From the NCBI GenBank assembly GCA_963724765.1, contig CAVRVY010000004.1, positions 128,001-192,000 on the forward strand: a stretch of 64,000 bases of DNA, read 5' to 3'. Shown here piece by piece: positions 47,982-59,117 of this stretch. How positions within the stretch are numbered: position 1 is the first letter of the stretch; each line of letters opens with the position of its first letter. Made by a program: the position numbers and the translations under genes. Below the pieces are notes generated by a model. That model made no database searches, had not been told where the DNA came from, and saw only the letters and a program-made list of their open reading frames with translations. The DNA comes from an uncultured delta proteobacterium (GTDB lineage: Bacteria; Desulfobacterota; Binatia; Binatales; Binataceae).

Positions 47982-48057
47982 ACGAACTCTGCGTTCGCGC
48001 CACGCTTGCAATAGGAGTAAAGCCGGATGTGCGTGCTAGACGCGAAGGAGCCAAGCA

Positions 48058-48426
48058 ATGGCAGTTAAAGCGATAGGGGAATTTTCGTTCAAGGCCATCA
48101 CCAGCACCTACAGTCCCGGGCCGGCGGGAAGCGTTCTCGACCAAGTGAATTGGGAAGGGACGGCGGCGGGGTTCGGAACAGTCTTCGGCACGGCTACCTA
48201 CGTCGGTGGTTCCAAGAACGGGACCTTCAGTGCGTGTTGGGTCGCTTACCTGGACAACGGCGAGCAACTTTCGGGTATCGGTTCTGGCACCTATGAGAGC
48301 AGCGGCAAACACCACTGGCGCACGCAGCACGTAATTCACATATCCGACGGCACTAGTATCGTCAACGAAGGTGAGATCGACCTGGCCACTCGGTCGTGGA
48401 CGGGTAAAAATTTCGAGAATAGCTGA
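48058..48426 (+). CDS. Beta-rich hypothetical protein between dif-like sites A and B
   Basis: AAGGAG RBS, intact 122-aa ORF. Confidence 0.7.
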   Translation: MAVKAIGEFSFKAITSTYSPGPAGSVLDQVNWEGTAAGFGTVFGTATYVGGSKNGTFSACWVAYLDNGEQLSGIGSGTYESSGKHHWRTQHVIHISDGTSIVNEGEIDLATRSWTGKNFENS

Positions 48427-48557
48427 ACGCGGGAGTCTCGCCTCCGCCGGCCCGGCGCGCATAAAGGAGGACTTTCGTCCAAAAATTCCTCTGCTGAAGG
48501 GTTGGTAAGCGCGGCGAGCCGGAATCGGTCGCCGCGCTTTTCATTCGCGGATAAGCA

Positions 48558-48615
48558 AGCAGACATAATATTTCTCACGCAACTGGACCGAAGCGCTGGC
48601 GACGTTACGTCAACT
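48558..48615. other. Paired inverted dif-like sites B/B'
   Basis: AGCAGACATAA-TATTTC-TCACGCAACTG-GA-CCGAAGCGCTG-GCGACG-TTACGTCAACT. Confidence 0.65.
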
Positions 48616-49447
48616 ACGTTGGCGATTTTGTTGCAATCGACAGTCATTTCAAATAGGCTTGTCGAATGGCTCAGAATCTGGTCAGAGCGGCCAAGGCGAT
48701 AGCGCGAGCGACGGCGAGCCGAGTAGTAGTCCCGCTACTCGTCCACGGCGAGGTGCGCTGTGAGCCTCGCGAACCCGGATCTAGGAGAACTTGAAGTGAG
48801 GCCCTTTAACCTCCAGTACAAAGGCCCGCTTCATTCAATGCAATCGGATAAAGCTGATCGAAAAAAAGAAGTCCATGATATTCGGCGAGCGTTTCACGAC
48901 CAATTAAAGCGACCGTGGAAATCGACCGAATTGCTCCGCTTTAAGTCGCAACACGATTATCACGGGTTCCCTTATCGCGGACAGCGTTATCAATCCGGAG
49001 ATGGACGGTGGCTACCTCTTGATCTAGATTGGGCTGTTACAAAACGAACAAAAGCCGGGCGAGACATAAATTTCATTCCTTTAGTAATACGCGCTACAGG
49101 GATGGCCCTTACTTGTGAACTTGAAATGCGGATTGCCTGGCGCGAAAAGACTCAAGGTGGGATCGTTCGAGCGACCGCAGAAGGCTTCGATTTAGACAAT
49201 CGGCTTAAACACATTCTCGATGCATTGGCGATCCCACAAGACAATCAATTGCCTGACGACGTTGCGGCTGACCCGTCGCCATATTTTCTAACCTTGCTCG
49301 AAGACGACGGCTTGATAACTCGCATCGATGTAAAGGCACATCCGATTGGCTTGCCAAAGCAACCAACGGAGCTAGACGCTTATCTTGAGTGGAGTTGACC
49401 CGGTTTCGTGGACAGTGGCGGAGTGGGGAAAGTGAAGGAGAGCCACG

Positions 49448-49762
49448 ATGCCCAAGAGTCATGCACGGTATGCGCTGGAATACCGGCGCCGAATGGTGGA
49501 GCTGGCGCGGGCAGGGCGTAGTCCCGACGATCTCGCGAAGGAGTTCGAGCCGACCGCCCAGTCGATTCGCAACTGGGTGGCGCAGGCGGAGCGCGATGCG
49601 GGCCGTCGTCTTGATGGGCTGACCAGCGACGAGCGGCAGGAGCTTACCCGGCTGCGGCGTGAGAACCGGGTGCTGCGCGAAGAGCGCGAGATACTATCAA
49701 AAGCCGCGGCCTGGTTCGCGACGGAGACCGGTTCGGTGCCGTCACGGCGTTCGAATTCGTGA
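49448..49762 (+). CDS. IS3 transposase OrfA (HTH + leucine zipper)
   Basis: RYALEYRRRMVEL...IRNWV...ELTRLRRENRVLREEREILSKAAAWF. Confidence 0.9.
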   Translation: MPKSHARYALEYRRRMVELARAGRSPDDLAKEFEPTAQSIRNWVAQAERDAGRRLDGLTSDERQELTRLRRENRVLREEREILSKAAAWFATETGSVPSRRSNS

Positions 49763-50643
49763 GCGCGAATCAGGCCATGTACCAGATTGCGACGATGTGC
49801 CGGGTGCTGGAGGTCTCCACCAGCGGATACTACGCGTGGTGCCAACGCTCGCCGTCCGCGCGCGCCCAGGCGGACGCGGAACTCACTTCACGGATGAACG
49901 CGATTCATGAGAGATCGTACGGGACCTACGGCGCACCGCGCATTCACGCCGAACTTGAGGCTGAAGGCATTCAAGTGGGGCGCAAGCGGGTGGCGCGGCT
50001 AATGCGCGCGGCAGGCTTGGCCGGCGTGAGCCGGCGCAAGTGGATAACCACCACGATGCGTGACCGCAATGCGCGTCCGGCGCCGGACCTGGTCGAGCGC
50101 AACTTCATGGCGCCAGGACCGAATCGGTTGTGGGTGGCTGACATCACCTATATCCCGACCTGGGCTGGTTTCCTGTATCTCGCGGTAGTGTTGGACGCCT
50201 TCAGCCGCCGGATCGTGGGCTGGGCGATGGCGACTCATCTGCGCACCGAGCTGGTGCTCGAAGCACTGAACATGGCGCTGGCGCAGCGGCGGCCCGCCGG
50301 GGTGATCCATCATTCCGACCAAGGCACACAGTACACGTCGATCGCCTTCGGGATACGTTGCCGGGAGGCCGGCGCGCGACCCTCGATGGGCTCGGTCGGT
50401 GATTGCTTCGACAATGCCATGTGCGAGAGCTTTTTCGCTACGCTCGAATGCGAGCTGCTCGACCGCCGCCGTTTCCACACCCAAGCCGAGGCGCGCATGG
50501 CGGTCTTCGAGTTCATCGAGGGCTGGTACAATCCCCATCGCCGCCACTCCGCCCTCGACTATCTGTCGCCAATCAACTACGAAAGGAGCCACGACCCAGA
50601 GGAGTCAACCGCAAGCCCTCCGCCGTCCACTGAACCGGGGTAA
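49759..50643 (+). CDS. IS3 transposase OrfB (DDE integrase)
   Basis: WVADITY, HHSDQGTQY, DNAMCESFF, YNPHRRHSAL. Confidence 0.93.
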   Translation: MSANQAMYQIATMCRVLEVSTSGYYAWCQRSPSARAQADAELTSRMNAIHERSYGTYGAPRIHAELEAEGIQVGRKRVARLMRAAGLAGVSRRKWITTTMRDRNARPAPDLVERNFMAPGPNRLWVADITYIPTWAGFLYLAVVLDAFSRRIVGWAMATHLRTELVLEALNMALAQRRPAGVIHHSDQGTQYTSIAFGIRCREAGARPSMGSVGDCFDNAMCESFFATLECELLDRRRFHTQAEARMAVFEFIEGWYNPHRRHSALDYLSPINYERSHDPEESTASPPPSTEPG

Positions 50644-50764
50644 CTCCAGAGATCGACATTGATGTGACGGTCCAGAGCGATGCGCTCGATGATTTTTAAG
50701 CCTTTCTGAGACTCGTTGGCGCCTGTTGAGTCGCGCTTTAGTATGCTGCGCGGATGTTCGCGCC

Positions 50765-51217
50765 CTACTCCAATAAGTCCACCATTGAAGACCCTAATTG
50801 TTGGTGGATCTGCTCCCAACGTGCCGTCGCCGCAAGGAGTTTGTCGTGGGCCTTGTCGCGCTCTTTCTCAAGGTCTGTGATTTGCGTTTTCAATTCCCGC
50901 ACCGCGCTCTCGACTGATTGAACATTTTGGACGGCCGTATGGCGCGCTTGTGCTAGGCGCGCCAGTTCTGGCTCAAGTGAGGGTCTCACATTTGAAGTAG
51001 CAGTGTCACGATATTCTCGAAACTTCTGATAATTCAGTTCTGCTTTTTCTCGCAATTCGTTGACATATGGCAACGTGCCTTTCGTATTGTTCGCCTTTGT
51101 TCTTATGAGCATGAGCTGGTCGTCATATTTTTGGACGCGCTCGCTCGCTTGGATACGTTTGGCATTTTCCACTTCCAGAGCATGTTGAAGATTTTCTCTA
51201 ATGCCCACCTCGTTCAC
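50765..51217 (-). CDS. Coiled-coil cargo protein
   Basis: 150-aa helical ORF whose GTG start overlaps the TGA of the upstream small ORF. Confidence 0.6.
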   Translation of the reverse strand: MNEVGIRENLQHALEVENAKRIQASERVQKYDDQLMLIRTKANNTKGTLPYVNELREKAELNYQKFREYRDTATSNVRPSLEPELARLAQARHTAVQNVQSVESAVRELKTQITDLEKERDKAHDKLLAATARWEQIHQQLGSSMVDLLE

Positions 51218-51381
51218 CTCTGCCCGATCCTTGTCTTTGGATCTGAATGAATTGCTTTTCCTAACAACTTGTCAAACTTTCCTAAGTCAATATGGCGGAT
51301 CTGCTCCCGCAGCTTGTCATCCTCTGCGCGCTGCTTTTCGCTGATCGGCTTGTGCTTTTGCCTACGCTTTTTTGTGGCCAC
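51214..51381 (-). CDS. Small basic protein (55 aa) downstream of IS1595-a transposase
   Basis: Hand-translated MATKKRRQKHKPISEKQRAEDDKLREQIRHIDLGKFDKLLGKAIHSDPKTRIGQR; homologous to 56699-56854. Confidence 0.7.
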   Translation of the reverse strand: MATKKRRQKHKPISEKQRAEDDKLREQIRHIDLGKFDKLLGKAIHSDPKTRIGQR

Positions 51382-51431
51382 GCTTGTACTTTAGCGCGGC
51401 CACGGAGCCTAGGCCATATGGTGCTTGCAAA

Positions 51432-52364
51432 CTATCCACTGCACGTTTCGACCATCGCAGCAAAGGCGTCTGCGCTGTGGCGATTGTTGTGGCGAAAGCT
51501 GAACTCATTTAGATACAGCGGCAGATAATCCTTGCTCACGTGGTGATAGGTGCCCACCACGCCACGCTTGAGCAATGCCCAGAACGATTCGATATTGTTT
51601 GTGTGAACCTCGCCGCGCACATATTCGCCGCGACCGTGATTCACAGCCTGATGCGGGATGCTTCTGTTCAGATAGCGATAGGCTTGATTTTCATCGGTCG
51701 CAACCAGTGAAACCTTGTCGCTCACAGTGCGATTAACGAAACCAGTCAGAGTTTGGGCGCCCATATCGCCAATGACCTTGGCGACGATGTTGCCCTTGCG
51801 CTCGATAGCGCCAATCACGCCGACTTTGCCGTAGCCGATGGCTTCGCCTAGAGGCTGTCGGCCTTTGGCCTTGCGTACCTGGGCGCTTTTCTTGCCGTAG
51901 TGGCGATTCCGATCCTTTCCACCGATGTAAGTTTCATCGACTTCGACTTGGCCAGTCAGCGAAAACGCATCGCCTTTCATCGCAGCACGCCAGCGATGGC
52001 AGATATACCAAGCTGTGCGCCAGTCTGTACCTGAATCCTCGCCAAACATAACGCGCCGAACCTGAAGCGAGCTAATGCCTTTCTTCGCGGTCAGCATCAT
52101 GTAGCCAATGCGAAACCAGATAACCAGTGAGACTTTGGTGTCTTGAAAAATCGTGGCTGTGGTGACGCTAAAGCGATAGCCCGCGCGCTTGCCGCAATCG
52201 GCGTTGCAGCAAGTCCAGCTAAAGGGTTTCTTTAACTTGTAGATTTTCTCCGCACGATTACAGCGAGGGCAGCGCACGCCGTTCGGCCAGCGCTTGGCGA
52301 CGATGTATTCTTTGCAGGCTTCATCGGTCGGAAACTGTTTCTCGAATAGCGCCAGTGTTTCCAT
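51432..52364 (-). CDS. IS1595-family (ISXO2-like) transposase a
   Basis: Zn ribbon CPRC..C..C, TIFQDTK, EVDETYIGG, ATDE, HTNNIESFW, YLNEFSFRHN. Confidence 0.93.
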   Translation of the reverse strand: METLALFEKQFPTDEACKEYIVAKRWPNGVRCPRCNRAEKIYKLKKPFSWTCCNADCGKRAGYRFSVTTATIFQDTKVSLVIWFRIGYMMLTAKKGISSLQVRRVMFGEDSGTDWRTAWYICHRWRAAMKGDAFSLTGQVEVDETYIGGKDRNRHYGKKSAQVRKAKGRQPLGEAIGYGKVGVIGAIERKGNIVAKVIGDMGAQTLTGFVNRTVSDKVSLVATDENQAYRYLNRSIPHQAVNHGRGEYVRGEVHTNNIESFWALLKRGVVGTYHHVSKDYLPLYLNEFSFRHNNRHSADAFAAMVETCSG

Positions 52365-52371
52365 GCTTCAG

Positions 52372-52400
52372 ATATTAGCGCTCTTTGCGTTGACTGTCAA
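52372..52400 (-). promoter_or_regulatory. sigma70 promoter of transposase a (probably leaderless)
   Basis: TTGACA-17 bp-TAATAT-7 nt-ATG; -35 lies inside the IR. Confidence 0.7.
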
Positions 52401-52420
52401 TACCAACAAAATAGCCACTA

Positions 52421-52448
52421 CGTAGACATAAATACTTGGAGTGCAAGT
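52421..52448 (-). other. dif-like site C
   Basis: Plus strand CGTAGACATAA-ATACTT-GGAGTGCAAGT; GTGCAA shared with site D; abuts the stop codon at 52449. Confidence 0.5.
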
Positions 52449-52955
52449 TCACCCTCTCAGGTCCGGAGTCGGCCTCGAAGCGGAAACCAGCAGGGAGATA
52501 AAGGCGATTACAGTTACACCAAGGATCCAAAGGGTCGCCAGCATGAATATGACCGCTTCCTCGCGGATGAGATAACCGGCAGCTGCCGCAAAGCTCGCGG
52601 CAGCGATTCCTAAGCCCATCACACTCGTAGTGGAAGAGCGAAGTATTTCAGTCCGATGTCGGGAGGTTTCGAGCACGAGACGACCGCCGCCGATGAGATG
52701 TATTAGACCAGACACTGCGTTGCAGATCTGCCATGCAATGTGCTCTTCGGATGCCAGATACACCAGCAGAAGCGCAGCGAAAAGGGACAGAAATAGAGCG
52801 CTCAGCGAGGAGTACATGAAATGAAACAGCGCCGAGGTTTGGCCCCTACCTAGACGGTGAGATCGCTCACCAAAAACAAAGACCACGCCGATGAATCCGG
52901 TCAGAGTCGCGGCCACTTGCGCGTAGGCGAGGAGAATAACCGCGTAACTACTCAT
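52449..52955 (-). CDS. Multi-pass membrane hypothetical protein between dif-like sites C and D
   Basis: About 5 hydrophobic segments; AQVAATLTGFIGVVFVF. Confidence 0.7.
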   Translation of the reverse strand: MSSYAVILLAYAQVAATLTGFIGVVFVFGERSHRLGRGQTSALFHFMYSSLSALFLSLFAALLLVYLASEEHIAWQICNAVSGLIHLIGGGRLVLETSRHRTEILRSSTTSVMGLGIAAASFAAAAGYLIREEAVIFMLATLWILGVTVIAFISLLVSASRPTPDLRG

Positions 52956-53000
52956 GTTGGGGTGCTAGGCTCTCTCGAAATCACGATAATTTTCGAGTCT

Positions 53001-53058
53001 GGTGAACATAATATTTCTCGTGCAACTGCAAAGAAGCGGTCGCAAGATTATGTCAACT
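53001..53058. other. Paired inverted dif-like sites D/D'
   Basis: GGTGAACATAA-TATTTC-TCGTGCAACTG-CA-AAGAAGCGGTC-GCAAGA-TTATGTCAACT; same 58-bp layout as B/B'. Confidence 0.7.
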
Positions 53059-53084
53059 TGAATCAAGTGGCGATTATCCGGCGC

Positions 53085-53113
53085 TTGACACCGACCCAAT
53101 AAAGCGCTATTCT
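53085..53113 (+). promoter_or_regulatory. sigma70 promoter of transposase b (probably leaderless)
   Basis: TTGACA-17 bp-TATTCT-7 nt-ATG. Confidence 0.7.
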
Positions 53114-53120
53114 TTTCATC

Positions 53121-54101
53121 ATGAATACGAAGAGAAAGCCCGTTGTTCGGCAGATGCAATTGCGCGAGCTTCTGGCCCGTTTCTCGACTGAGGATGCTTG
53201 CAAAGAACACCTTGACCGAAGGCGCTGGCCGGATGGTGTGGTCAAGTGCCCGCGTTGCGGCGGCAAAGCATACCGGCTCAAGGCGCGCCCCTTCCACTAC
53301 CTGTGCAAGAGCGGCAAGCAATCGACCGATAAAGAGACCGGCGATGTCGTTACCTGCCACAAACAAAACGGCTATCGCTTCTCCGTCATCACGCGAACTG
53401 TGTTCGAGAATACGAACTACCCTCTTCGAGAATGGTTCCGGGTAATCTTCTTCATGCTGCACTCGAAGAAAGGAATGTCTGCCCATCAGATACACCGCAT
53501 GATCGGAACCGGCTCGTATGAAACCGCTTGGTATATGTGCATACGAATTCGCGCCGCAATGCGCGGCGATATGCTTTCGCTGAGCGGCATTGTAGAAGCG
53601 GACGAGACTTACATCGGCGGGAAGGATCGCAATCGACACTGGAACAAAAAGAGCCGTCAGCAACGTGAATTGGCTGGGCCACAACCGCTTGGCGAGGCCG
53701 TTGGATACGGGAAAAGCGGAGTCATCGGCGCAATCGCTCGCAAGGGTAACGTCGTCTGCCGCGTGATCGGCGATCAGGATGCTCGCACGCTTGCGGGTTT
53801 CGTTCGCAACGTCGTTGACGACAAGGTAACCCTCGTCGCGACGGACGAGAACCAAGCCTACAATTATTTGGACCGCGACATTCGCCATGAGGCGGTCAAG
53901 CACAGCGCTGGCGAATACGTGCGCGGCGAGGTCCATACGAACAACATCGAGAGTTTCTGGAGCCTTCTGAAGCGTGGCGTTGTGGGCACCTATCACAACG
54001 TGAGCAAGAAATATCTGCCGCTGTATCTGAATGAATTTTCCTTCCGATTCAACAATCGCGAGAACCCTGATATCTTCGACGCCATCCTTCGAGGATGCTG
54101 A
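53121..54101 (+). CDS. IS1595-family transposase b
   Basis: CPRC, EADETYIGG, ATDE, HTNNIESFW, YLNEFSFRFN. Confidence 0.93.
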   Translation: MNTKRKPVVRQMQLRELLARFSTEDACKEHLDRRRWPDGVVKCPRCGGKAYRLKARPFHYLCKSGKQSTDKETGDVVTCHKQNGYRFSVITRTVFENTNYPLREWFRVIFFMLHSKKGMSAHQIHRMIGTGSYETAWYMCIRIRAAMRGDMLSLSGIVEADETYIGGKDRNRHWNKKSRQQRELAGPQPLGEAVGYGKSGVIGAIARKGNVVCRVIGDQDARTLAGFVRNVVDDKVTLVATDENQAYNYLDRDIRHEAVKHSAGEYVRGEVHTNNIESFWSLLKRGVVGTYHNVSKKYLPLYLNEFSFRFNNRENPDIFDAILRGC

Positions 54102-54177
54102 GTTCGCCACGCTGGCGGCGCCCTCAGCAACCGTCAAAGCCAGCGCAATTGCGGTTACCGTTTGCTGCGAGGGTGGG

Positions 54178-54453
54178 ATGGCACGGAAGAAAGCAAAACG
54201 ATCGGTTGGATCAGCTCGCGTTCCAATTTCCGATGAAAAATTGATCGCGCGCCTCCAAGAGAAAGCGCCGGAGCTATTGACTGCCAAGGTTTCGGAAGCG
54301 GCCTTTGATTCGGTCATAGACAATCTGCTTGCGGAATCGCCATCCGATGATCGTCCGCATTTCTATTGCCGCAAATGCGGGGAATATCACCTGAAAAGTC
54401 ATTTGCACTATCAACCTAGCGCCACTACGAAAACCACCCCAAAACAAGCTTGA
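54178..54453 (+). CDS. Small basic protein (91 aa) downstream of transposase b, with C-terminal CxxC..H..H
   Basis: MARKKAKRS...SDEKLIARL...FDSVIDNLL...YCRKCGEYHLKSH. Confidence 0.6.
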   Translation: MARKKAKRSVGSARVPISDEKLIARLQEKAPELLTAKVSEAAFDSVIDNLLAESPSDDRPHFYCRKCGEYHLKSHLHYQPSATTKTTPKQA

Positions 54454-55075
54454 GCGATCAAGAGAAGAAAGATTCCCCCGAACCCGCAGAGCGCGGAACG
54501 AAGGGGAGTCACCTGACGGGGCACTTCGAACTCGATCTCCCAAATCCCAACGAGGATACAACCGCAGGCGAAAGAATCAGAAATCCTTCAAGCGCCGCCT
54601 TTTTAACGACCTGCGAAACCCGCGCTTTTATATCGAAGGATTCGCTCTCATCGTTGTTGCCATCTATACCGGCTTCGCTGGATATCAATCGTGTCAGTTG
54701 GAACGCTCTACCATTGCGACCAAAGAAAGCGCTGATGCTGCGGTTGCGGCGACGCGTGCCTTGATCTTTCTCGAAGAGAAACCATTTTTCGGCAGTTATG
54801 GACCTGTATGCACTATGGGCTTGCAAAATGTCGGCAAGATTCCCGCTACTCAGATAATCGAAACGCACGAATTCAAGATCACCGCCAACGATAATGCCGT
54901 TCCGAGTTTTTCCCGATGTCCTGAAGGGAAGAAACTCCGCTTCCCGTATATCAGGCCTGATCATCCGAGAATCTTCGCAATCGCTCCACCGGTCGGAGCT
55001 TCCCAGACTCCGCCCACAGTCTGGATTCACGGCTGTATTCGCTATCGCGACTTCTTGAGCGCGCGTCTAGTTTAG
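54450..55075 (+). pseudogene. Membrane-anchored cargo protein, apparently frameshifted near 54600
   Basis: Overlapping ORFs 54450-54764 and 54698-55075; a TM-like IVAIYTGFAGYQ segment lies in the second frame after a T-run. Confidence 0.45.
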
Positions 55076-55240
55076 ACCCACGATCTGGTCGGTGTCGAGT
55101 ATCGGATAATCGCCCCTCAAGTGGGGACTAGGTGAATGTTGACACCCACTGAAAGTTGGCATAAAAAGAGTCGAGGACGGCTATGCAGGGAGGTTCTGCG
55201 GGCGGGGTTCCCGCCCGGTTACAAGGGCCGCGAGTGGTTT

Positions 55241-55979
55241 ATGATTCTCCACGCTTACTTTGACGAACACGGGCACGATGGATCGTCCGTATACGCCATC
55301 GCTGGTTACGTCGGGACCGATGAGCAATGGAGCACGTTCACTGAAAAGTGGAGCTCTACCCTAGAGCGTCATTATGCATTCGGCCCGTTCCACATGGTCG
55401 AGTTCGAGGCTTCAGACATAGACAAAAAGAGCCAGTTCCACGGCTGGAGCAAGGATCAAAAGGACGCGCTGGCGAAAGAGCTTTTTCCGCTCATCCCTGA
55501 CAGCGGTGTGCGCGGATTAGGCCAAGCGATACTGATGGACGCCTTTAATGGCCTTTCGGAGAATGCACAGCAACGGTTACGCGATCCTTATTGGGGTCTG
55601 CTTCCACAACTGTATCGAACGACTACTGAAGGACATTCCAGAGGACGACAAGGTTGATTTGGTTTTTGATCGCAAAGACAAATACACTGGCGAAGCGCTG
55701 GATCGCTATAGATTTCTCAAGGATGACTGGCTGCCGCCTGCACAGGCGAAAAAGCTAGTGGGTTGTGCATTCAGAGACGACGATATCATTATTCCGCTAC
55801 AAGCAGCGGACGTTCTCGTTTATGAAACCGGCAAATTATTTGAGAACGCCTTTCGTAGGCCAGATTTATCGGAGAGAAAGTCACTGCAAGTTCTCCGTGC
55901 GCGACAAAACGTACAAATCGGAGTCTGGGACAGGGATAATCTTGCCGCAGAGTTTAAAAAATACAACTCCCTACTCTAG
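55241..55979 (+). pseudogene. DUF3800-like protein, frameshift near 55595
   Basis: AYFDEHG...IAGYVG...FHMVE in one frame; LVFDR...PLQAADVLVYE in the next. Confidence 0.65.
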
Positions 55980-56179
55980 CCACTGCTGGTAAGACACGCC
56001 CAAAAAATAGCGGCGACCACCGCGACGGCGCCTAAAACCAGCGGAATCGCACAGCCGATAAGGCCGAGCGCATCGCCCACTCCCATCGGGCCGGGATGGC
56101 TTTGGCCGCAATGTGGGCAGACCTTCGCTTTCTCTGAAACAGGCGCGTGGCAGGTTTTGCAGTTGACCAGAGCGGCCAC
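55976..56179 (-). CDS. Zinc-ribbon protein with C-terminal TM helix
   Basis: CKTC...SEKAKVCPHCG, hydrophobic tail. Confidence 0.65.
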   Translation of the reverse strand: MAALVNCKTCHAPVSEKAKVCPHCGQSHPGPMGVGDALGLIGCAIPLVLGAVAVVAAIFWACLTSSG

Positions 56180-56185
56180 GAACGT

Positions 56186-56692
56186 TCAACGGCCGAAGCG
56201 GCATACATTAGAAATCAGGCGCTGAGAGATGTCCTCGCACGACGTGTAGGTTGAGCCATCATCACAATCAAATCGTAGTTCATCGTTCTCAGCGACCTTG
56301 ATAGCGAGATATCTGGCATCAACGCGCCTATAAGACGCGAGGGGACCGTACAGCCGAGATTCGACAATACTGATGTATCGCCCAGCATTGCTGAATTCTA
56401 CTTCAATTTTTACATAAGGCAGTCGAGCGGTTGCGGTTAATACAAACTTCGTATCGCTGAGCTCTAGAAATGCGCAATGGCATTCTGGGTTCGCCTTAAG
56501 TTCTCGGCGAAGCTTTTCTGAATCGATAGAGATTCGATGCTTCAACGAATCCCAAAAAAGCGGCGCCTTGGCGGCAATAATAGCGGCGTTGTGTAGGCGC
56601 AGCCTGTCTCGAATGATCGCCCGTTCGTCTTGCTCGCGTTGCTGGCTCTTTAGTGTCTCTATCCAGTCGCTCATAGTTCCATCCGCCACCAC
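56186..56692 (-). CDS. Hypothetical cargo protein
   Basis: Intact lower-GC ORF, co-directional with transposase c. Confidence 0.6.
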   Translation of the reverse strand: MVADGTMSDWIETLKSQQREQDERAIIRDRLRLHNAAIIAAKAPLFWDSLKHRISIDSEKLRRELKANPECHCAFLELSDTKFVLTATARLPYVKIEVEFSNAGRYISIVESRLYGPLASYRRVDARYLAIKVAENDELRFDCDDGSTYTSCEDISQRLISNVCRFGR

Positions 56693-56698
56693 GTCTTT

Positions 56699-56854
56699 TC
56701 ATTTAGCCCCTTCCCGAGAACGGAAAAGTGGCTTGATGGCCCGCTTGAATTTCTCAGGGTCGGCGTACGCGAGTTCCTGTCTTAGGCGCTCGTCTTCGGC
56801 GCGCGTTTTCTCTTTCAACCTGCTTGGCTGCTTCGATTTGGTCTTGCGAGGCAC
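56699..56854 (-). CDS. Small basic protein (51 aa) downstream of IS1595-c transposase
   Basis: Hand-translated MPRKTKSKQPSRLKEKTRAEDERLRQELAYADPEKFKRAIKPLFRSREGAK; homologous to 51214-51381. Confidence 0.7.
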   Translation of the reverse strand: MPRKTKSKQPSRLKEKTRAEDERLRQELAYADPEKFKRAIKPLFRSREGAK

Positions 56855-56886
56855 GCTGAAAGCATAGCGCTTTCAAATCGCGCCGG

Positions 56887-57825
56887 CTACTGAGCGCACG
56901 TCGTAATCAAGTCGGCAAACATGTTCTCGTTCTTTCGATTGTTAAAGCGATAGCTGAATTCGTTCAAATAGAAGGGCAGATACTTCTTGCTGACGTTATG
57001 GTAGTTGCCGACGATTCCGCGCTTCAGCAACGCCCAGAACGATTCGATTGAGTTTGTGTGAACGTTGCCGCGCACGTATTCGCCGCGCGCGTGGCTCACG
57101 GCCTGATGCGGCATGCCTGCGCGAACAAACTTATAAGCTGGATTCTCGTCAGTCGCGACGAGCGTAACTTTCTCGTCTGTGGCGCGGCGCACGAATGAAC
57201 CGAGAGTAGGAGCATCCATCGAGCCGATAACGCGGGCCACGACGTTGCCCTTGCGCTCGATAGCCCCGATCACGCCGACCTTCCCGAATCCAACGGCCTC
57301 GCCAAGCCGTTGCGCGCCCTTGGCCTTGCGTACCTGGGCGCTCTTTTTGTTCTTGTGACGATTGCGGTCTTTCCCGCCGATATAAGTCTCGTCAACCTCG
57401 ACTTCGCCGCTCAGTGGACGGTACATATCGCCAGCCATCGCAGCGCGCCAGCGCATGCACATGAACCAGCTTGTGTGATAGTCGTGCGTGGAATTCTCGC
57501 CAAACATCACGCGATGAATCTGAAGCGCACTCATGCCTTTCTTTGAAGTCAGCATCAGATAGCCGACCTTAAACCAAAGATCGAGCGGCTTCTTTGTATT
57601 CTCGAAGATCGTTCCGCTGATGACCGAGAACCGAAAGCCCTGACGCTTGCCGCAATCCTCGTTCTTGCAGACCCAATGAAAGGGCCGCGCCTTGAGCGCG
57701 TAGACCTTTTCCTTGCGATCGCAGCGGGGGCAGCGCACGCCGTCCGGCCAGCGCATTTGAACCAGAAAGCGACGGCATTGCTCGTCGGTTCCAAACTCTC
57801 TATCGAAGTCGCCGATGGTCTGCAT
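56887..57825 (-). CDS. IS1595-family transposase c
   Basis: CPRC..C..C, EVDETYIGG, ATDE, HTNSIESFW, YLNEFSYRFN. Confidence 0.93.
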   Translation of the reverse strand: MQTIGDFDREFGTDEQCRRFLVQMRWPDGVRCPRCDRKEKVYALKARPFHWVCKNEDCGKRQGFRFSVISGTIFENTKKPLDLWFKVGYLMLTSKKGMSALQIHRVMFGENSTHDYHTSWFMCMRWRAAMAGDMYRPLSGEVEVDETYIGGKDRNRHKNKKSAQVRKAKGAQRLGEAVGFGKVGVIGAIERKGNVVARVIGSMDAPTLGSFVRRATDEKVTLVATDENPAYKFVRAGMPHQAVSHARGEYVRGNVHTNSIESFWALLKRGIVGNYHNVSKKYLPFYLNEFSYRFNNRKNENMFADLITTCAQ

Positions 57826-57831
57826 GCTCAA

Positions 57832-57860
57832 AGAATAGCGCTAAACGAGACGAGTGTCAA
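57832..57860 (-). promoter_or_regulatory. sigma70 promoter of transposase c (probably leaderless)
   Basis: TTGACA-17 bp-TATTCT-6 nt-ATG. Confidence 0.7.
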
Positions 57861-57881
57861 CATTCACCTAGTCCCCCCTCA

Positions 57882-57909
57882 AGTTGACATAATATTTCTT
57901 ATGCGAAGC
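57882..57909 (-). other. Chromosomal dif site (XerC/XerD recombination site)
   Basis: Minus strand GCTTCGCATAA-GAAATA-TTATGTCAACT vs E. coli GGTGCGCATAA-TGTATA-TTATGTTAAAT; intergenic; gene strand bias converges here. Confidence 0.85.
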
Positions 57910-58058
57910 CGTACTAATGCAAACCAAAATAAACCGCAGTTAGGCTGGGTGTCAATGCCGCGGCCGCCGACAGACTCCTTCCGGATGCGCTCGTCCGATG
58001 TGCGTCGGTGCGACCTGCTGGCGCGCGCGCTCGCGCGTCTCTATGATTGGGAGCCGTT

Positions 58059-59117
58059 ATGACTTCAAAGCTTCAATTGCGATCGATCATCGTTGCTTTC
58101 GCCGCGCTGCTGGCGCTCACACCTTATGGCAGTGCGGCGCGGGCCGCCTCGGCGAGCGACACTCATGCCAGCTCCAGCGACGGCGCTTCCCAGAGCGTGC
58201 AGGTGCAGATCTTTCTCCAGCGTCATTTCCGCCTGCCCAGCGCCGCCGACGTCGATGTTGGTCCGCCGCAAGCTTCATCGATTCCCGGATTTTCCGTCAG
58301 GATCGTCAAGCTGCATAACGACGCCGGTCAGTCGGCCACCTTCGTCCTGTACACCGACGCCGCCGGCAAGACCGCGATTTTGAGCGACGTCGAAGTCGGC
58401 GCGGCCTCGCCCGGCCCGGCGCACGGCCTGTGGAGCCGCCCACTGCGCCCGGCCAACGAGCCGCCAGGCGCCCCGGCCAAGTCGGTATTGATCACTGACT
58501 CACCCGGCAAAGCGATCGTTGGCACCGAAATGGATTTGACCAAGGATCCATGGGGACGTGTCAACCTTGAGAAGCTGCATCTCGACGACCGCGCCACGCT
58601 TGGGCCCGACGACGCGCCGGTGACGATCCTCGAGTTCGGCGATCTCGAATGCCCCTTCTGCGCGCGCGCCTTCAGTGAGATCGAGACCGTGGTAAACACG
58701 ACCTACAAGGGCAAGGTGCGGCTCATCTTCAAGCACTTTCCCCTGAACATCCATCCGTGGGCGATGCAGGCCGCGATCGCGGCCGAGTGCGTGCGCCGCC
58801 AGAATCCCAAGGCCTTCTGGTCCTTCGTCGGCGACGTCTATCGCGACCAGGGCGCGATCAACCCGCAGAATTTGCGCCAGCACGTCAGCACTTACGTCGA
58901 GAAGCTCGGATTGGATCAGCAGGTGCTCAATGCCTGCATCATGGCGCCGGCGGCCGAAGCCCAGGTTACGCAGGACCGCGACGACGGCACCGCAATCGCG
59001 ATCAATTCCACGCCGACCTTTCTGGTCAACGGAATCGAGTTGGTAGGGTTGCCCTCGGACAAGACCTTCGATTACGTGGTCAACTCCGAAGTGAAGCAGC
59101 ATCAGGCGAGCAAATAG
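58059..59117 (+). CDS. Exported DsbA-family thioredoxin-fold protein
   Basis: GPDDAPVTILEFGDLECPFC, FKHFPL, STPTFLVNG. Confidence 0.88.
   Translation: MTSKLQLRSIIVAFAALLALTPYGSAARAASASDTHASSSDGASQSVQVQIFLQRHFRLPSAADVDVGPPQASSIPGFSVRIVKLHNDAGQSATFVLYTDAAGKTAILSDVEVGAASPGPAHGLWSRPLRPANEPPGAPAKSVLITDSPGKAIVGTEMDLTKDPWGRVNLEKLHLDDRATLGPDDAPVTILEFGDLECPFCARAFSEIETVVNTTYKGKVRLIFKHFPLNIHPWAMQAAIAAECVRRQNPKAFWSFVGDVYRDQGAINPQNLRQHVSTYVEKLGLDQQVLNACIMAPAAEAQVTQDRDDGTAIAINSTPTFLVNGIELVGLPSDKTFDYVVNSEVKQHQASK

Follow-up and report, generated by a model that had tools for sequence, protein, structure and literature searches.

What is the small gene that sits behind the transposase in some IS1595-family elements, and does it belong to the transposon or to its cargo? 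In the window (the whole stretch of 64,000 nucleotides that we analyzed), a sequence-only reading had singled out two short basic ORFs as a possible link between the transposase and XerD, FtsK, or dif DNA. Both ORFs are there, on the minus strand and with GTG starts. We use the name orfS for this conserved small gene behind IS1595-family transposases:

51214..51381, minus strand: orfS_a, a small basic ORF of 55 amino acids with a GTG start
56699..56854, minus strand: orfS_c, a small basic ORF of 51 amino acids with a GTG start

The start of orfS_a is 50 nt past the stop codon of its transposase, and the ORF after it (50765-51217) has a GTG start that overlaps the stop codon of orfS_a. For orfS_c, the distance from the transposase is 32 nt, and the next gene on the same strand follows after a gap of 6 nt. 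The proposed alignment of the two proteins could be reproduced: they are homologous by BLASTP (12/34 identities, E = 4e-7), with 31% identity over their full length. A profile search of this genome recovered both of them (E = 3.6e-20 for orfS_a and E = 3.4e-21 for orfS_c).

The genes lie in elements a and c of three neighboring elements:

48621..52416, minus strand: element a, 3796 bp between inverted repeats
51432..52364, minus strand: transposase a, IS1595-family, 310 amino acids, with PF12762 (6e-41) and PF12760
53069..55114, plus strand: element b, 2046 bp between inverted repeats
53121..54101, plus strand: transposase b, IS1595-family, 326 amino acids, with PF12762 and PF12760
55123..57876, minus strand: element c, with the 8-bp duplication CCTCAAGT at 55115-55122 and 57877-57884
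56887..57825, minus strand: transposase c, IS1595-family, with PF12762, PF12760, and NF033547 (1e-50)

All three transposases match PF12762 (4e-38 to 6e-41) and have the zinc ribbon PF12760. (The likely start of transposase c is the ATG at 57825; the ORF list has a TTG at 57831.) The terminal inverted repeats are 26-37 nt long, and element a is interrupted by an IS3-type insertion at about 49387-50648. Besides element c, 8-bp duplications flank the elements at loci L017, L019, L022, L023, L108, L116, and others, and 8 bp is the target duplication that ISfinder gives for the IS1595 family. Classical IS1595 subgroups have a single ORF, but subgroups with passenger genes exist. Given the DDE_Tnp_IS1595 domain, the zinc ribbon, the inverted repeats, and the 8-bp duplication, the host elements belong to the IS1595 family, although they do not fit its single-ORF description: they are 2.0-3.8 kb long and carry orfS plus one to three cargo genes.

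To see how widespread orfS is, we searched 5.8 billion proteins with a profile built from 8 ORFs and found 342 matches with E ≤ 0.01. Among cluster representatives, 138 matched at E ≤ 1e-3, and 23 of these at E ≤ 1e-10. The homologs are nearly all stand-alone proteins of 43-100 amino acids. We found no match for orfS in Pfam, PHROGs, or NCBIfam (E ≤ 0.01-0.1), so the gene is indeed both conserved and unannotated. In particular, the profiles in these collections identified no TniQ/TnsD domain (E ≤ 0.01-0.1) and no ribbon-helix-helix or excisionase-type small DNA-binding domain. We also considered whether orfS (type 1) is related to type-3 small ORFs (hhalign, 4.5%) or to the C-terminal tail of canonical IS1595 transposases (hhalign, 0.1%), and rejected both ideas. 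Searching 72,556 plasmids with orfS_c (tblastn) gave nothing at E ≤ 0.01; the plasmid transposases are at most 38% identical.

A few longer proteins may be fused forms of orfS. In P0241 and P0152, the apparent end of a transposase runs into orfS, with junk sequence between the two parts in P0241. P0178 has an excisionase-type helix-turn-helix (TIGR01764, 3e-16) followed by an orfS-like core.

Because very short ORFs often arise by chance in a genome with 62% G+C, and because the exact orfS_a and orfS_c proteins are absent from the protein collection that we searched, it could be asked if orfS is translated at all. Its conservation might instead reflect DNA or RNA signals 3' of the transposase gene, such as a promoter, transposase-binding sites, or an sRNA. 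We consider this very improbable, as the pattern of substitutions is specific to the orfS frame. Across 23 coding sequences (253 pairs), pN/pS is 0.53 and dN/dS is 0.38 in the orfS frame, versus a pN/pS of 1.05-1.32 in the four unlinked frames; the antisense frame that shares third positions with orfS has a pN/pS of 0.63. Thus orfS is under purifying selection, on which the sequence-only reading had made its case depend, but this selection is only moderate. Also, the protein is conserved across homologs that are 27-86% identical, with synonymous change; the start codon and the length of the ORF are preserved in tens of loci; and Rfam gave no match across 48000-58500. We conclude that orfS is a real protein-coding gene, whose product is basic and has about 50 amino acids.

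The AlphaFold2 model of orfS_c (mean pLDDT of 70) has coil at residues 1-14, helices at residues 15-30 and 33-44, and no strand, with the basic tail unstructured. It thus differs from the strand-helix-helix and winged-helix folds of ribbon-helix-helix and excisionase-type proteins. The protein is therefore predicted to have a disordered N-terminus, rich in K, R, and P, followed by two short helices. The near-invariant residues are R18, D21, L24, R25, L28, and D32. Comparing the model to the PDB with Foldseek gave nothing at E ≤ 10, and the best hits in the ESM Atlas (0.88) were to unnamed clusters and fell under the level that counts.

Is orfS expressed separately from the transposase? Both copies have the GCGC and the -10-like box with a 6-nt spacer that had been noticed ahead of them:

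51397-51394 (GCGC), 51393-51388 (TAAAGT), 6-nt spacer, 51381-51379 (GTG), minus strand: -10-like box of orfS_a
56870-56867 (GCGC), 56866-56861 (TATGCT), 6-nt spacer, 56854-56852 (GTG), minus strand: -10-like box of orfS_c

A T-A-n-n-n-T hexamer is found 6 nt before the GTG or ATG start in 8/8 aligned orfS sequences, while the exact GCGC precedes it in five of the eight. In 17 metagenome loci, the same DNA as in the box of orfS_c is conserved; it shows up as R-Y-A/T when the open frame ahead of the start is translated. A consensus scan did not find a -35 element or a full sigma-70 promoter before orfS_a or orfS_c. The promoters of the transposases have the same layout: TTGACA-17-TAATAT ends 7 nt before the ATG of transposase a, and TTGACA-17-TATTCT ends at 57832 for transposase c, which places the -10 element 6-7 nt before the ATG. 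We infer that orfS, like the transposase gene, may have a promoter of its own that yields a leaderless mRNA. We rejected a frameshift fusion of the transposase and orfS because most loci have an in-frame stop 6-7 codons before the start of orfS.

orfS is associated with one kind of transposase. An IS1595 transposase is directly upstream of orfS, ending about 35-50 nt before it, in 27 of the 29 testable metagenome loci (which were fetched with orfS). When we ran the orfS profile over 95 loci, it matched only the closest transposase relatives: L001, L002, L017 (twice), L019-L023, and L033. In a phylogenetic tree, all of the orfS-bearing transposases fall within a single clade of 21 rows with 99/99 support, including two rows (L029 and L098) whose orfS status is unreadable. 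Transposase b groups with L032 in this tree. The sister lineages L025 and L040 (beside L024) lack any small ORF, so the wider group can do without one at this position.

On the other hand, orfS might be unrelated to transposition and lead the cargo operon as its first gene, encoding a small regulator or a partner of the cargo, with the orfS promoter driving the operon. A gene on the same strand always follows orfS, within a few nt or overlapping it; orfS has its own -10-like box; and in a natural variant (P0376), orfS_c is fused in frame to the next gene. However, the gene behind orfS changes family from element to element while orfS stays (its product is coiled-coil in element a, L023, and L033, and has other folds elsewhere), which makes a specific cargo partner unlikely. 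Furthermore, orfS follows the phylogeny of the transposase and not the cargo. No cargo is shared among elements a, b, and c (at 1e-5), so the claim that all other cargo differs is correct for these three elements, but it does not extend across genomes, where distal cargo recurs: the cargo gene of element c matches genes in L104, L108, L110, L113, and L126, and that of element a matches genes in L017 and L116. Cargo is also swapped between close relatives, as L116 and L113 have different distal genes. Overall, we think that a role in the cargo operon is unlikely.

These observations support the view that, in one clade of IS1595-family transposons with cargo, orfS belongs to the core genes and is inherited with the transposase. 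The sequence-only reading had called it a core gene rather than a passenger and had staked this on conservation among related elements. The linkage in 27/29 loci, the single clade, the purifying selection, and the exchange of cargo all bear this out.

The insertion sites of these elements raise the question of a more specific role. Element c is beside dif:

57882..57909, minus strand: chromosomal dif, 28 bp, with a XerC arm, a 6-nt center, and a XerD arm

The genome has no other full match to dif. On its contig (C4), the cumulative GC skew reaches its peak at 180-190 kb, the region that contains dif. The XerD arm points toward element c, whose inverted repeat is 5 nt away. An end could be read for 20 orfS-bearing elements; in 12 of them, a perfect XerD arm (9/9) lies 4-5 nt from an inverted repeat, and for 10 of these 12, the site is a canonical dif. 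The 8-bp duplications of the elements at dif or a XerD arm begin with ACT. In 12 cases, it is the transposase-proximal repeat that faces dif; in 2, the distal one does. The orfS-bearing elements are site-specific. It had been proposed to compare dif-adjacent elements with others, and this comparison had a mixed outcome: a XerD arm of at least 7/9 flanks 13/20 orfS-bearing elements but 0/22 scored relatives without orfS (which have another small ORF or none), yet five of the 20 (L033, L118, L119, L126, and L130) have no dif-like flank, and L119 and L126 sit in hairpin loops.

Could orfS be a target selector? It would link the transposase to FtsK, to the XerD arm, or to dif with XerD bound, and this would place insertions 5 nt outside the XerD arm. 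The counts of XerD arms are as this idea would predict. Also, both orfS copies in this genome are in the dif array, while its 16 IS1595-like transposase matches are spread across four contigs; in the dif-linked subclade, orfS takes a form of its own that ends in PLFRS and has a long, basic N-terminus; and the orientation bias (12 vs. 2) would fit an asymmetric capture complex. There is a precedent from another family, as the IS1202/ISAjo2 elements home to dif (PMC10132070). Nevertheless, we consider this role unlikely. The association between orfS and dif is real, but descent confounds it, as the type of orfS coincides with the clade of transposase. Besides the five orfS-bearing elements without dif, L022, which has a short variant of orfS, lies next to a perfect XerD arm, but in the tree its transposase is the sister of those of the hairpin-targeting L119 and L126. 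And orfS is not similar to TnsD/TniQ, XafT, or any known family. Separately, we dropped the idea that an S-E-K-x-R-A stretch in orfS is an FtsK-gamma-like motif: the part of PMC5052618 that describes FtsK-gamma residues 1289-1297 as the contact with XerD does not include this motif.

Element b also weighs against a selector. It is in the same 5-nt register from the XerD arm of dif, but has an unrelated small ORF:

54178..54453, plus strand: type-2 small ORF, 91 amino acids, with a basic N-terminus and a C-terminal CxxC...H..H

This ORF has its own family (186 proteins at E ≤ 0.01). The weaker similarity to orfS that had been ascribed to it is not significant (no BLASTP alignment at E ≤ 100; hhalign probability of 2%), although its corresponding position was correctly recognized. 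It is a positional analog from a separate family that is not detectably related to orfS. L032, a relative of element b by its transposase, is in a hairpin.

In a more elaborate version, orfS would be a minimal target-selecting subunit of 50 amino acids: it would dock an IS1595 transposase onto dif with XerD bound to it, while in variant lineages the docking site would be a hairpin loop. The basic tail and the conserved R-D-R face of the helix would do the docking. This seems quite unlikely to us. If true, orfS would be what makes a site-specific "dif hunter" out of an insertion sequence with a single enzyme, letting it stack cargo modules at the replication terminus, and orfS would be a far smaller functional analog of TnsD/TniQ.

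Because orfS is present in non-dif relatives and the dif-adjacent element b has an unrelated ORF, the evidence does not mark orfS as a dedicated dif adaptor. Our tentative preference, at slightly less than even odds, is that orfS is a small nucleic-acid-binding accessory or regulatory factor for transposition that is general to the clade, and not a dedicated adaptor for XerD, FtsK, or dif. It might help or restrain the assembly of the transpososome, the capture of the target, or expression. Several observations do not favor an accessory factor: the same-strand cargo gene close behind every orfS, which is why orfS could instead begin a cargo operon; the lack of a full sigma-70 promoter before orfS in the consensus scan; the sister lineages without a small ORF; and the moderate strength of selection. 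A predicted complex of transposase c with orfS_c scored 0.01, against a mark of 0.32, in a run without controls, which counts neither for nor against an interaction.

IS1595 elements are usually treated as having one gene, but in this clade, selection maintains another small gene that has no name. In at least ten independent assemblies, these elements are found in a fixed register next to the chromosomal dif and build tandem arrays of cargo genes there. In titles and abstracts, we did not find any report of a small ORF in IS1595 elements or of IS1595 elements at dif, and the IS1202 family were the only dif-homing insertion sequences that we found there. If orfS acts in the choice or control of targets, it would be the smallest known accessory factor for targeted DDE transposition, and would make it easy to test how a recombinase-bound site is read by a transposase. 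Even if orfS is no more than a regulator, its family should be named and given a profile: the members are now labeled "hypothetical protein" or are missed because of their small size.

How does orfS compare to known systems? TnsD and TniQ, from Tn7-like elements and from Tn5053/Tn402 (the "res site hunters"), are separate selectors that direct a DDE transposase to a conserved safe site, and act at a fixed distance from a chromosomal or recombination site. They have 300-500 amino acids with zinc-finger and helix-turn-helix domains and work via an ATPase (TnsC/TniB), while orfS has about 50 amino acids, no family match, and no ATPase partner. InsA of IS1 (the nearest family to IS1595) and OrfA of IS911/IS3 are short, basic, element-encoded modulators of transposition or of transposase expression. 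Their frames lie upstream of that of the transposase or overlap it, with frameshifting as the link, and the proteins have the same N-terminal DNA-binding domain as the transposase. In contrast, orfS comes after the transposase gene, from which an in-frame stop separates it; it has a frame of its own and no similarity to the transposase. XafT of the TLC satellite phage is reportedly a small Xer activation factor that acts at dif through XerD. XafT-like factors have the Pfam domain DUF3653 and activate XerD directly; the Pfam scan gave orfS no accepted family, and so no domain of this kind. Also, XafT serves Xer-mediated integration of an element without a transposase, while the orfS elements have inverted repeats, 8-bp duplications, and a DDE transposase.

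The closest parallel is with the ISAjo2-type insertion sequences of the IS1202 family, which were described as "dif site hunters" (Harmer, Pong & Hall 2023, PMC10132070). Both groups have a DDE transposase and insert at a fixed distance from a Xer arm of a dif or dif-like site; for the ISAjo2 type, this distance is 5 bp, and the authors suggest that the bound recombinase is recognized. According to that paper, the ISAjo2 type uses the XerC arm, makes a 5-bp duplication, always has one orientation, and encodes one large TnsB-like transposase (441-457 amino acids) and no further protein. The orfS elements instead have an IS1595-type transposase of 310-326 amino acids, use the XerD arm, make 8-bp duplications, are found in both orientations, and carry cargo and the extra gene orfS. 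Without being members of that group, the orfS elements work like the IS1202/ISAjo2 dif hunters.

The window contains three IS1595-family transposase genes, each with PF12762 and PF12760 in a Pfam scan, and their products share 63-65% identity. Each gene lies within an element (a, b, or c). Downstream of transposases a and c is a small basic gene, which we call orfS.

Features of the three elements (window positions)
48621-52416: element a, bounded by inverted repeats
51214-51381, minus strand: orfS_a, 55 aa, GTG start, directly after the stop of transposase a
51432-52364, minus strand: transposase a, IS1595 family (Pfam)
53069-55114: element b, bounded by inverted repeats
53121-54101, plus strand: transposase b, IS1595 family (Pfam)
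55123-57876: element c, bounded by inverted repeats
56699-56854, minus strand: orfS_c, 51 aa, GTG start, directly after the stop of transposase c
56887-57831, minus strand: transposase c, IS1595 family (Pfam)

A perfect 8-bp duplication, CCTCAAGT, is present on both sides of element c. Element a is interrupted by an IS3-type insertion (49387-50648, with ORFs at 49448-49762 and 49759-50643). In run X4, one contig passes directly from 49386 to 50649 and thus lacks this insertion.

The sequence-only reading had aligned the two orfS peptides and had noted a GCGC-TA..T box 6 nt before each GTG. We reproduced the alignment (BLASTP E 4e-7, 12/34 identities) and found the box at both genes. In an alignment of eight sequences (orfS_a, orfS_c, and those of six relatives in other genomes), a TAnnnT hexamer lies 6 nt 5' of the start in every case, and it is preceded by exact GCGC in five.

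A profile of eight orfS ORFs, run against 5.8 billion sequences, gave 627 candidates, of which 342 proteins matched at E ≤ 0.01. These 342 are unnamed or "hypothetical," except for one labelled "chorismate mutase," and none has a Pfam domain. An exhaustive search of 1.84 billion representatives gave 138 matches at E ≤ 1e-3 (23 at ≤ 1e-10), almost all of them stand-alone proteins of 43-100 amino acids. orfS itself had no match in Pfam, PHROGs, or NCBIfam. That orfS is non-coding seems very improbable: across 23 coding sequences (253 pairs), pN/pS in its frame is 0.53 and the median dN/dS is 0.38. In four of the other frames, pN/pS is 1.05-1.32; the antisense frame, whose third positions coincide with those of orfS, gives 0.63. 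The AF2 model (142 sequences) is modest, with a mean pLDDT of 70; it has an unstructured basic N-terminus and helices at 15-30 and 33-44. The near-invariant residues are R18, D21, L24, R25, L28, and D32.

Two proteins from the searches have unusual architectures. P0376, from another assembly, is a near-identical variant in which orfS_c runs on in frame into the first part of the 168-aa gene downstream, probably because the orfS_c stop is affected by a small indel or was assembled differently. In P0178 (109 aa), an excisionase-type helix-turn-helix (TIGR01764, 3e-16) is joined to an orfS-like core, which hints that this core may work beside a DNA-binding part.

Sampling from orfS gave 35 metagenome loci, of which 6 with less than 110 nt upstream were set aside. 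An IS1595 transposase ends just 5' of orfS in 27 of the 29 judged loci. The two without an upstream IS1595 transposase are L109, where orfS is truncated, and L129. We rejected L129 as an orfS locus, as the match is spurious and lies inside a long G+C-rich frame.

Sampling from the transposase, we inspected 32 of 79 genome loci by eye and ran the orfS profile over 95 loci. It matched only the two window elements and seven further loci (L017, twice, L019, L020, L021, L022, L023, and L033), which are the nearest transposase relatives. A maximum-likelihood tree of 42 transposases places all those with orfS together in one 21-row clade (support 99/99), within which orfS status is readable for all rows but L029 and L098. 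Cargo is swapped between close relatives and recurs between distant ones. The transposase linkage, the single clade, and the exchange of cargo support the proposal that orfS is a core gene of these elements. It was found in 5 of 301 sampled genomes of the phylum: all three sampled from the window's family, the window's own genome, and one other of the same class. We conclude that orfS represents a new family of small proteins, as yet without a name, that goes with one clade of site-specific IS1595 elements.

Two cargo genes at the distal repeat also recur across genomes, and neither has a Pfam match. The one in element c (55136-55979, plus strand) is split here into two overlapping ORFs; its N-terminus bears the motif Y-F-D-E-x-G, and it has matches in L104, L108, L110, L113, and L126. 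The one in element a (48760-49398, plus strand) matches genes in L017 and L116.

Relatives outside the orfS clade have a type-2 ORF, a type-3 ORF, or nothing at the same position. The type-2 ORF, from a family of 186 proteins, is found in L032 and in element b (54178-54453). The latter had been read as weakly similar to orfS; the ORF is real, but the kinship is undetectable (no BLASTP alignment; hhalign probability 2%). Type-3 ORFs are found in L024, L026, L030, L031, L035, L036, and L037, and no homology was demonstrable among type 2, type 3, and orfS (type 1). Separately, a mini-ORF in the -1 frame (54095-54244, plus strand) overlaps the stop codon of transposase b, with its start in ATGCTGA, and such mini-ORFs are present in 12 of 18 inspected elements with type-2, type-3, or no ORF. 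A motif, Q-[LMF]-x-[LF]-x-[LFY], aligns in all 12 and resembles a beta-clamp-binding motif. A pN/pS of 0.78, versus 0.99-1.16 in other frames, weakly supports the view that the mini-ORF may be coding.

Insertion is site-specific, in many of the elements beside dif, the chromosomal Xer site. The window's own genome has a single full dif match, the 28-bp site at 57882-57909, which is located at the cumulative GC-skew peak of its contig. Candidates for this organism's XerC/XerD are encoded at L132:1483-2385 (minus strand) and L131:1396-2397 (plus strand). The inverted repeat of element c begins 5 nt past the XerD arm, and its duplication starts with ACT, the last three bases of that arm; the distal repeat of element b has the same register once element c is taken out. 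The order dif, 5 nt, transposase-proximal repeat is also found in L017, L018, L019, L023, L103, L104 (duplicate L105), L108, L114, and L116, and in the opposite orientation in L113. In L022 and L111 the XerD arm is perfect but the XerC side has decayed. All 8-bp duplications at these junctions start with ACT. The window, L017, L019, and L021 have tandem arrays with the newest element nearest dif.

The sequence-only reading had proposed comparing dif-adjacent with non-dif elements for this gene. An end is readable in 20 elements with orfS; 12 of them have a 9/9 match to the XerD arm 4-5 nt from a repeat, and for 10 of the 12 the site is a canonical dif. Among the relatives that lack type-1 orfS, 22 were scored and none reached 7/9. 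Five of the 20 (L033, L118, L119, L126, and L130) have no dif-like flank. The tally also includes element a, with XerD-like arms at 7/9 and 8/9; L110, at 6/9; and L021, which has another element on either side and is 3.1 kb away from a dif.

Many non-dif relatives are inserted in the loops of G+C-rich hairpins (L025, L028, L030, L031, L032, L042, L119, and L126), and the 8-bp duplication is the loop or overlaps it. Two targets are common to unrelated genomes: C3:1207197 in the window's own genome and L029 share one, and C2:279550 and L028 share the other.

The window also contains two copies, at 79% identity, of a 53-nt unit (48556-48615 and 52999-53058). Each copy resembles a decayed dif-like site, behind which comes an inverted sequence similar to a XerD arm; elements a and b directly adjoin these XerD-like arms. 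The units may be left over from older dif copies or from Xer-driven events. In run X4, a contig of low depth fuses the outer end of element a (52416) to the ACT at 53056 in the XerD-like arm. This junction skips 639 bp, including ORF 52449-52955, and suggests that the array is arranged differently in a related population.

What might orfS do? Its link to dif is strong but is confounded by descent, and it is broken in three cases. First, some orfS-bearing elements are in hairpins. Second, element b is at dif, yet it has an unrelated small ORF and a transposase that groups with that of hairpin-homing L032. Third, L022 is at a XerD arm, yet its lineage is that of L119 and L126, which home to hairpins. 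These cases somewhat weaken the idea that orfS is a dedicated adaptor linking the transposase to XerD, FtsK, or dif, which we consider unlikely. Given the confounding and the three cases, we rank a clade-general role above both this adaptor and a function in the cargo operon as its leader or regulator, which seems about as doubtful. Our tentative preference is that orfS would have a clade-general accessory or regulatory role.

The transposase-proximal inverted repeat contains TTGACA, a 17-nt spacer, and a -10 hexamer that ends 6-7 nt before the ATG, so the transposase mRNA should be leaderless. An inward-facing TTGACA is also present in the distal repeat. orfS has the same layout as the transposase promoter (GCGC-TAnnnT-6 nt-start). 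A consensus promoter scan of the orfS_a and orfS_c regions found no match to a -35, and no Shine-Dalgarno-like sequence is visible before orfS.

In a search of titles and abstracts, we found no report of a small ORF in IS1595 elements or of IS1595 elements at dif; the only dif hunters found were IS1202-family elements, on the XerC side. The nearest described system is the IS1202/ISAjo2 group of dif hunters (PMC10132070). These insert on the XerC side, their duplications are 5 bp long, and they have no gene for an accessory protein. Compared with that description, the IS1595 elements insert on the XerD side, produce 8-bp duplications, and carry orfS.
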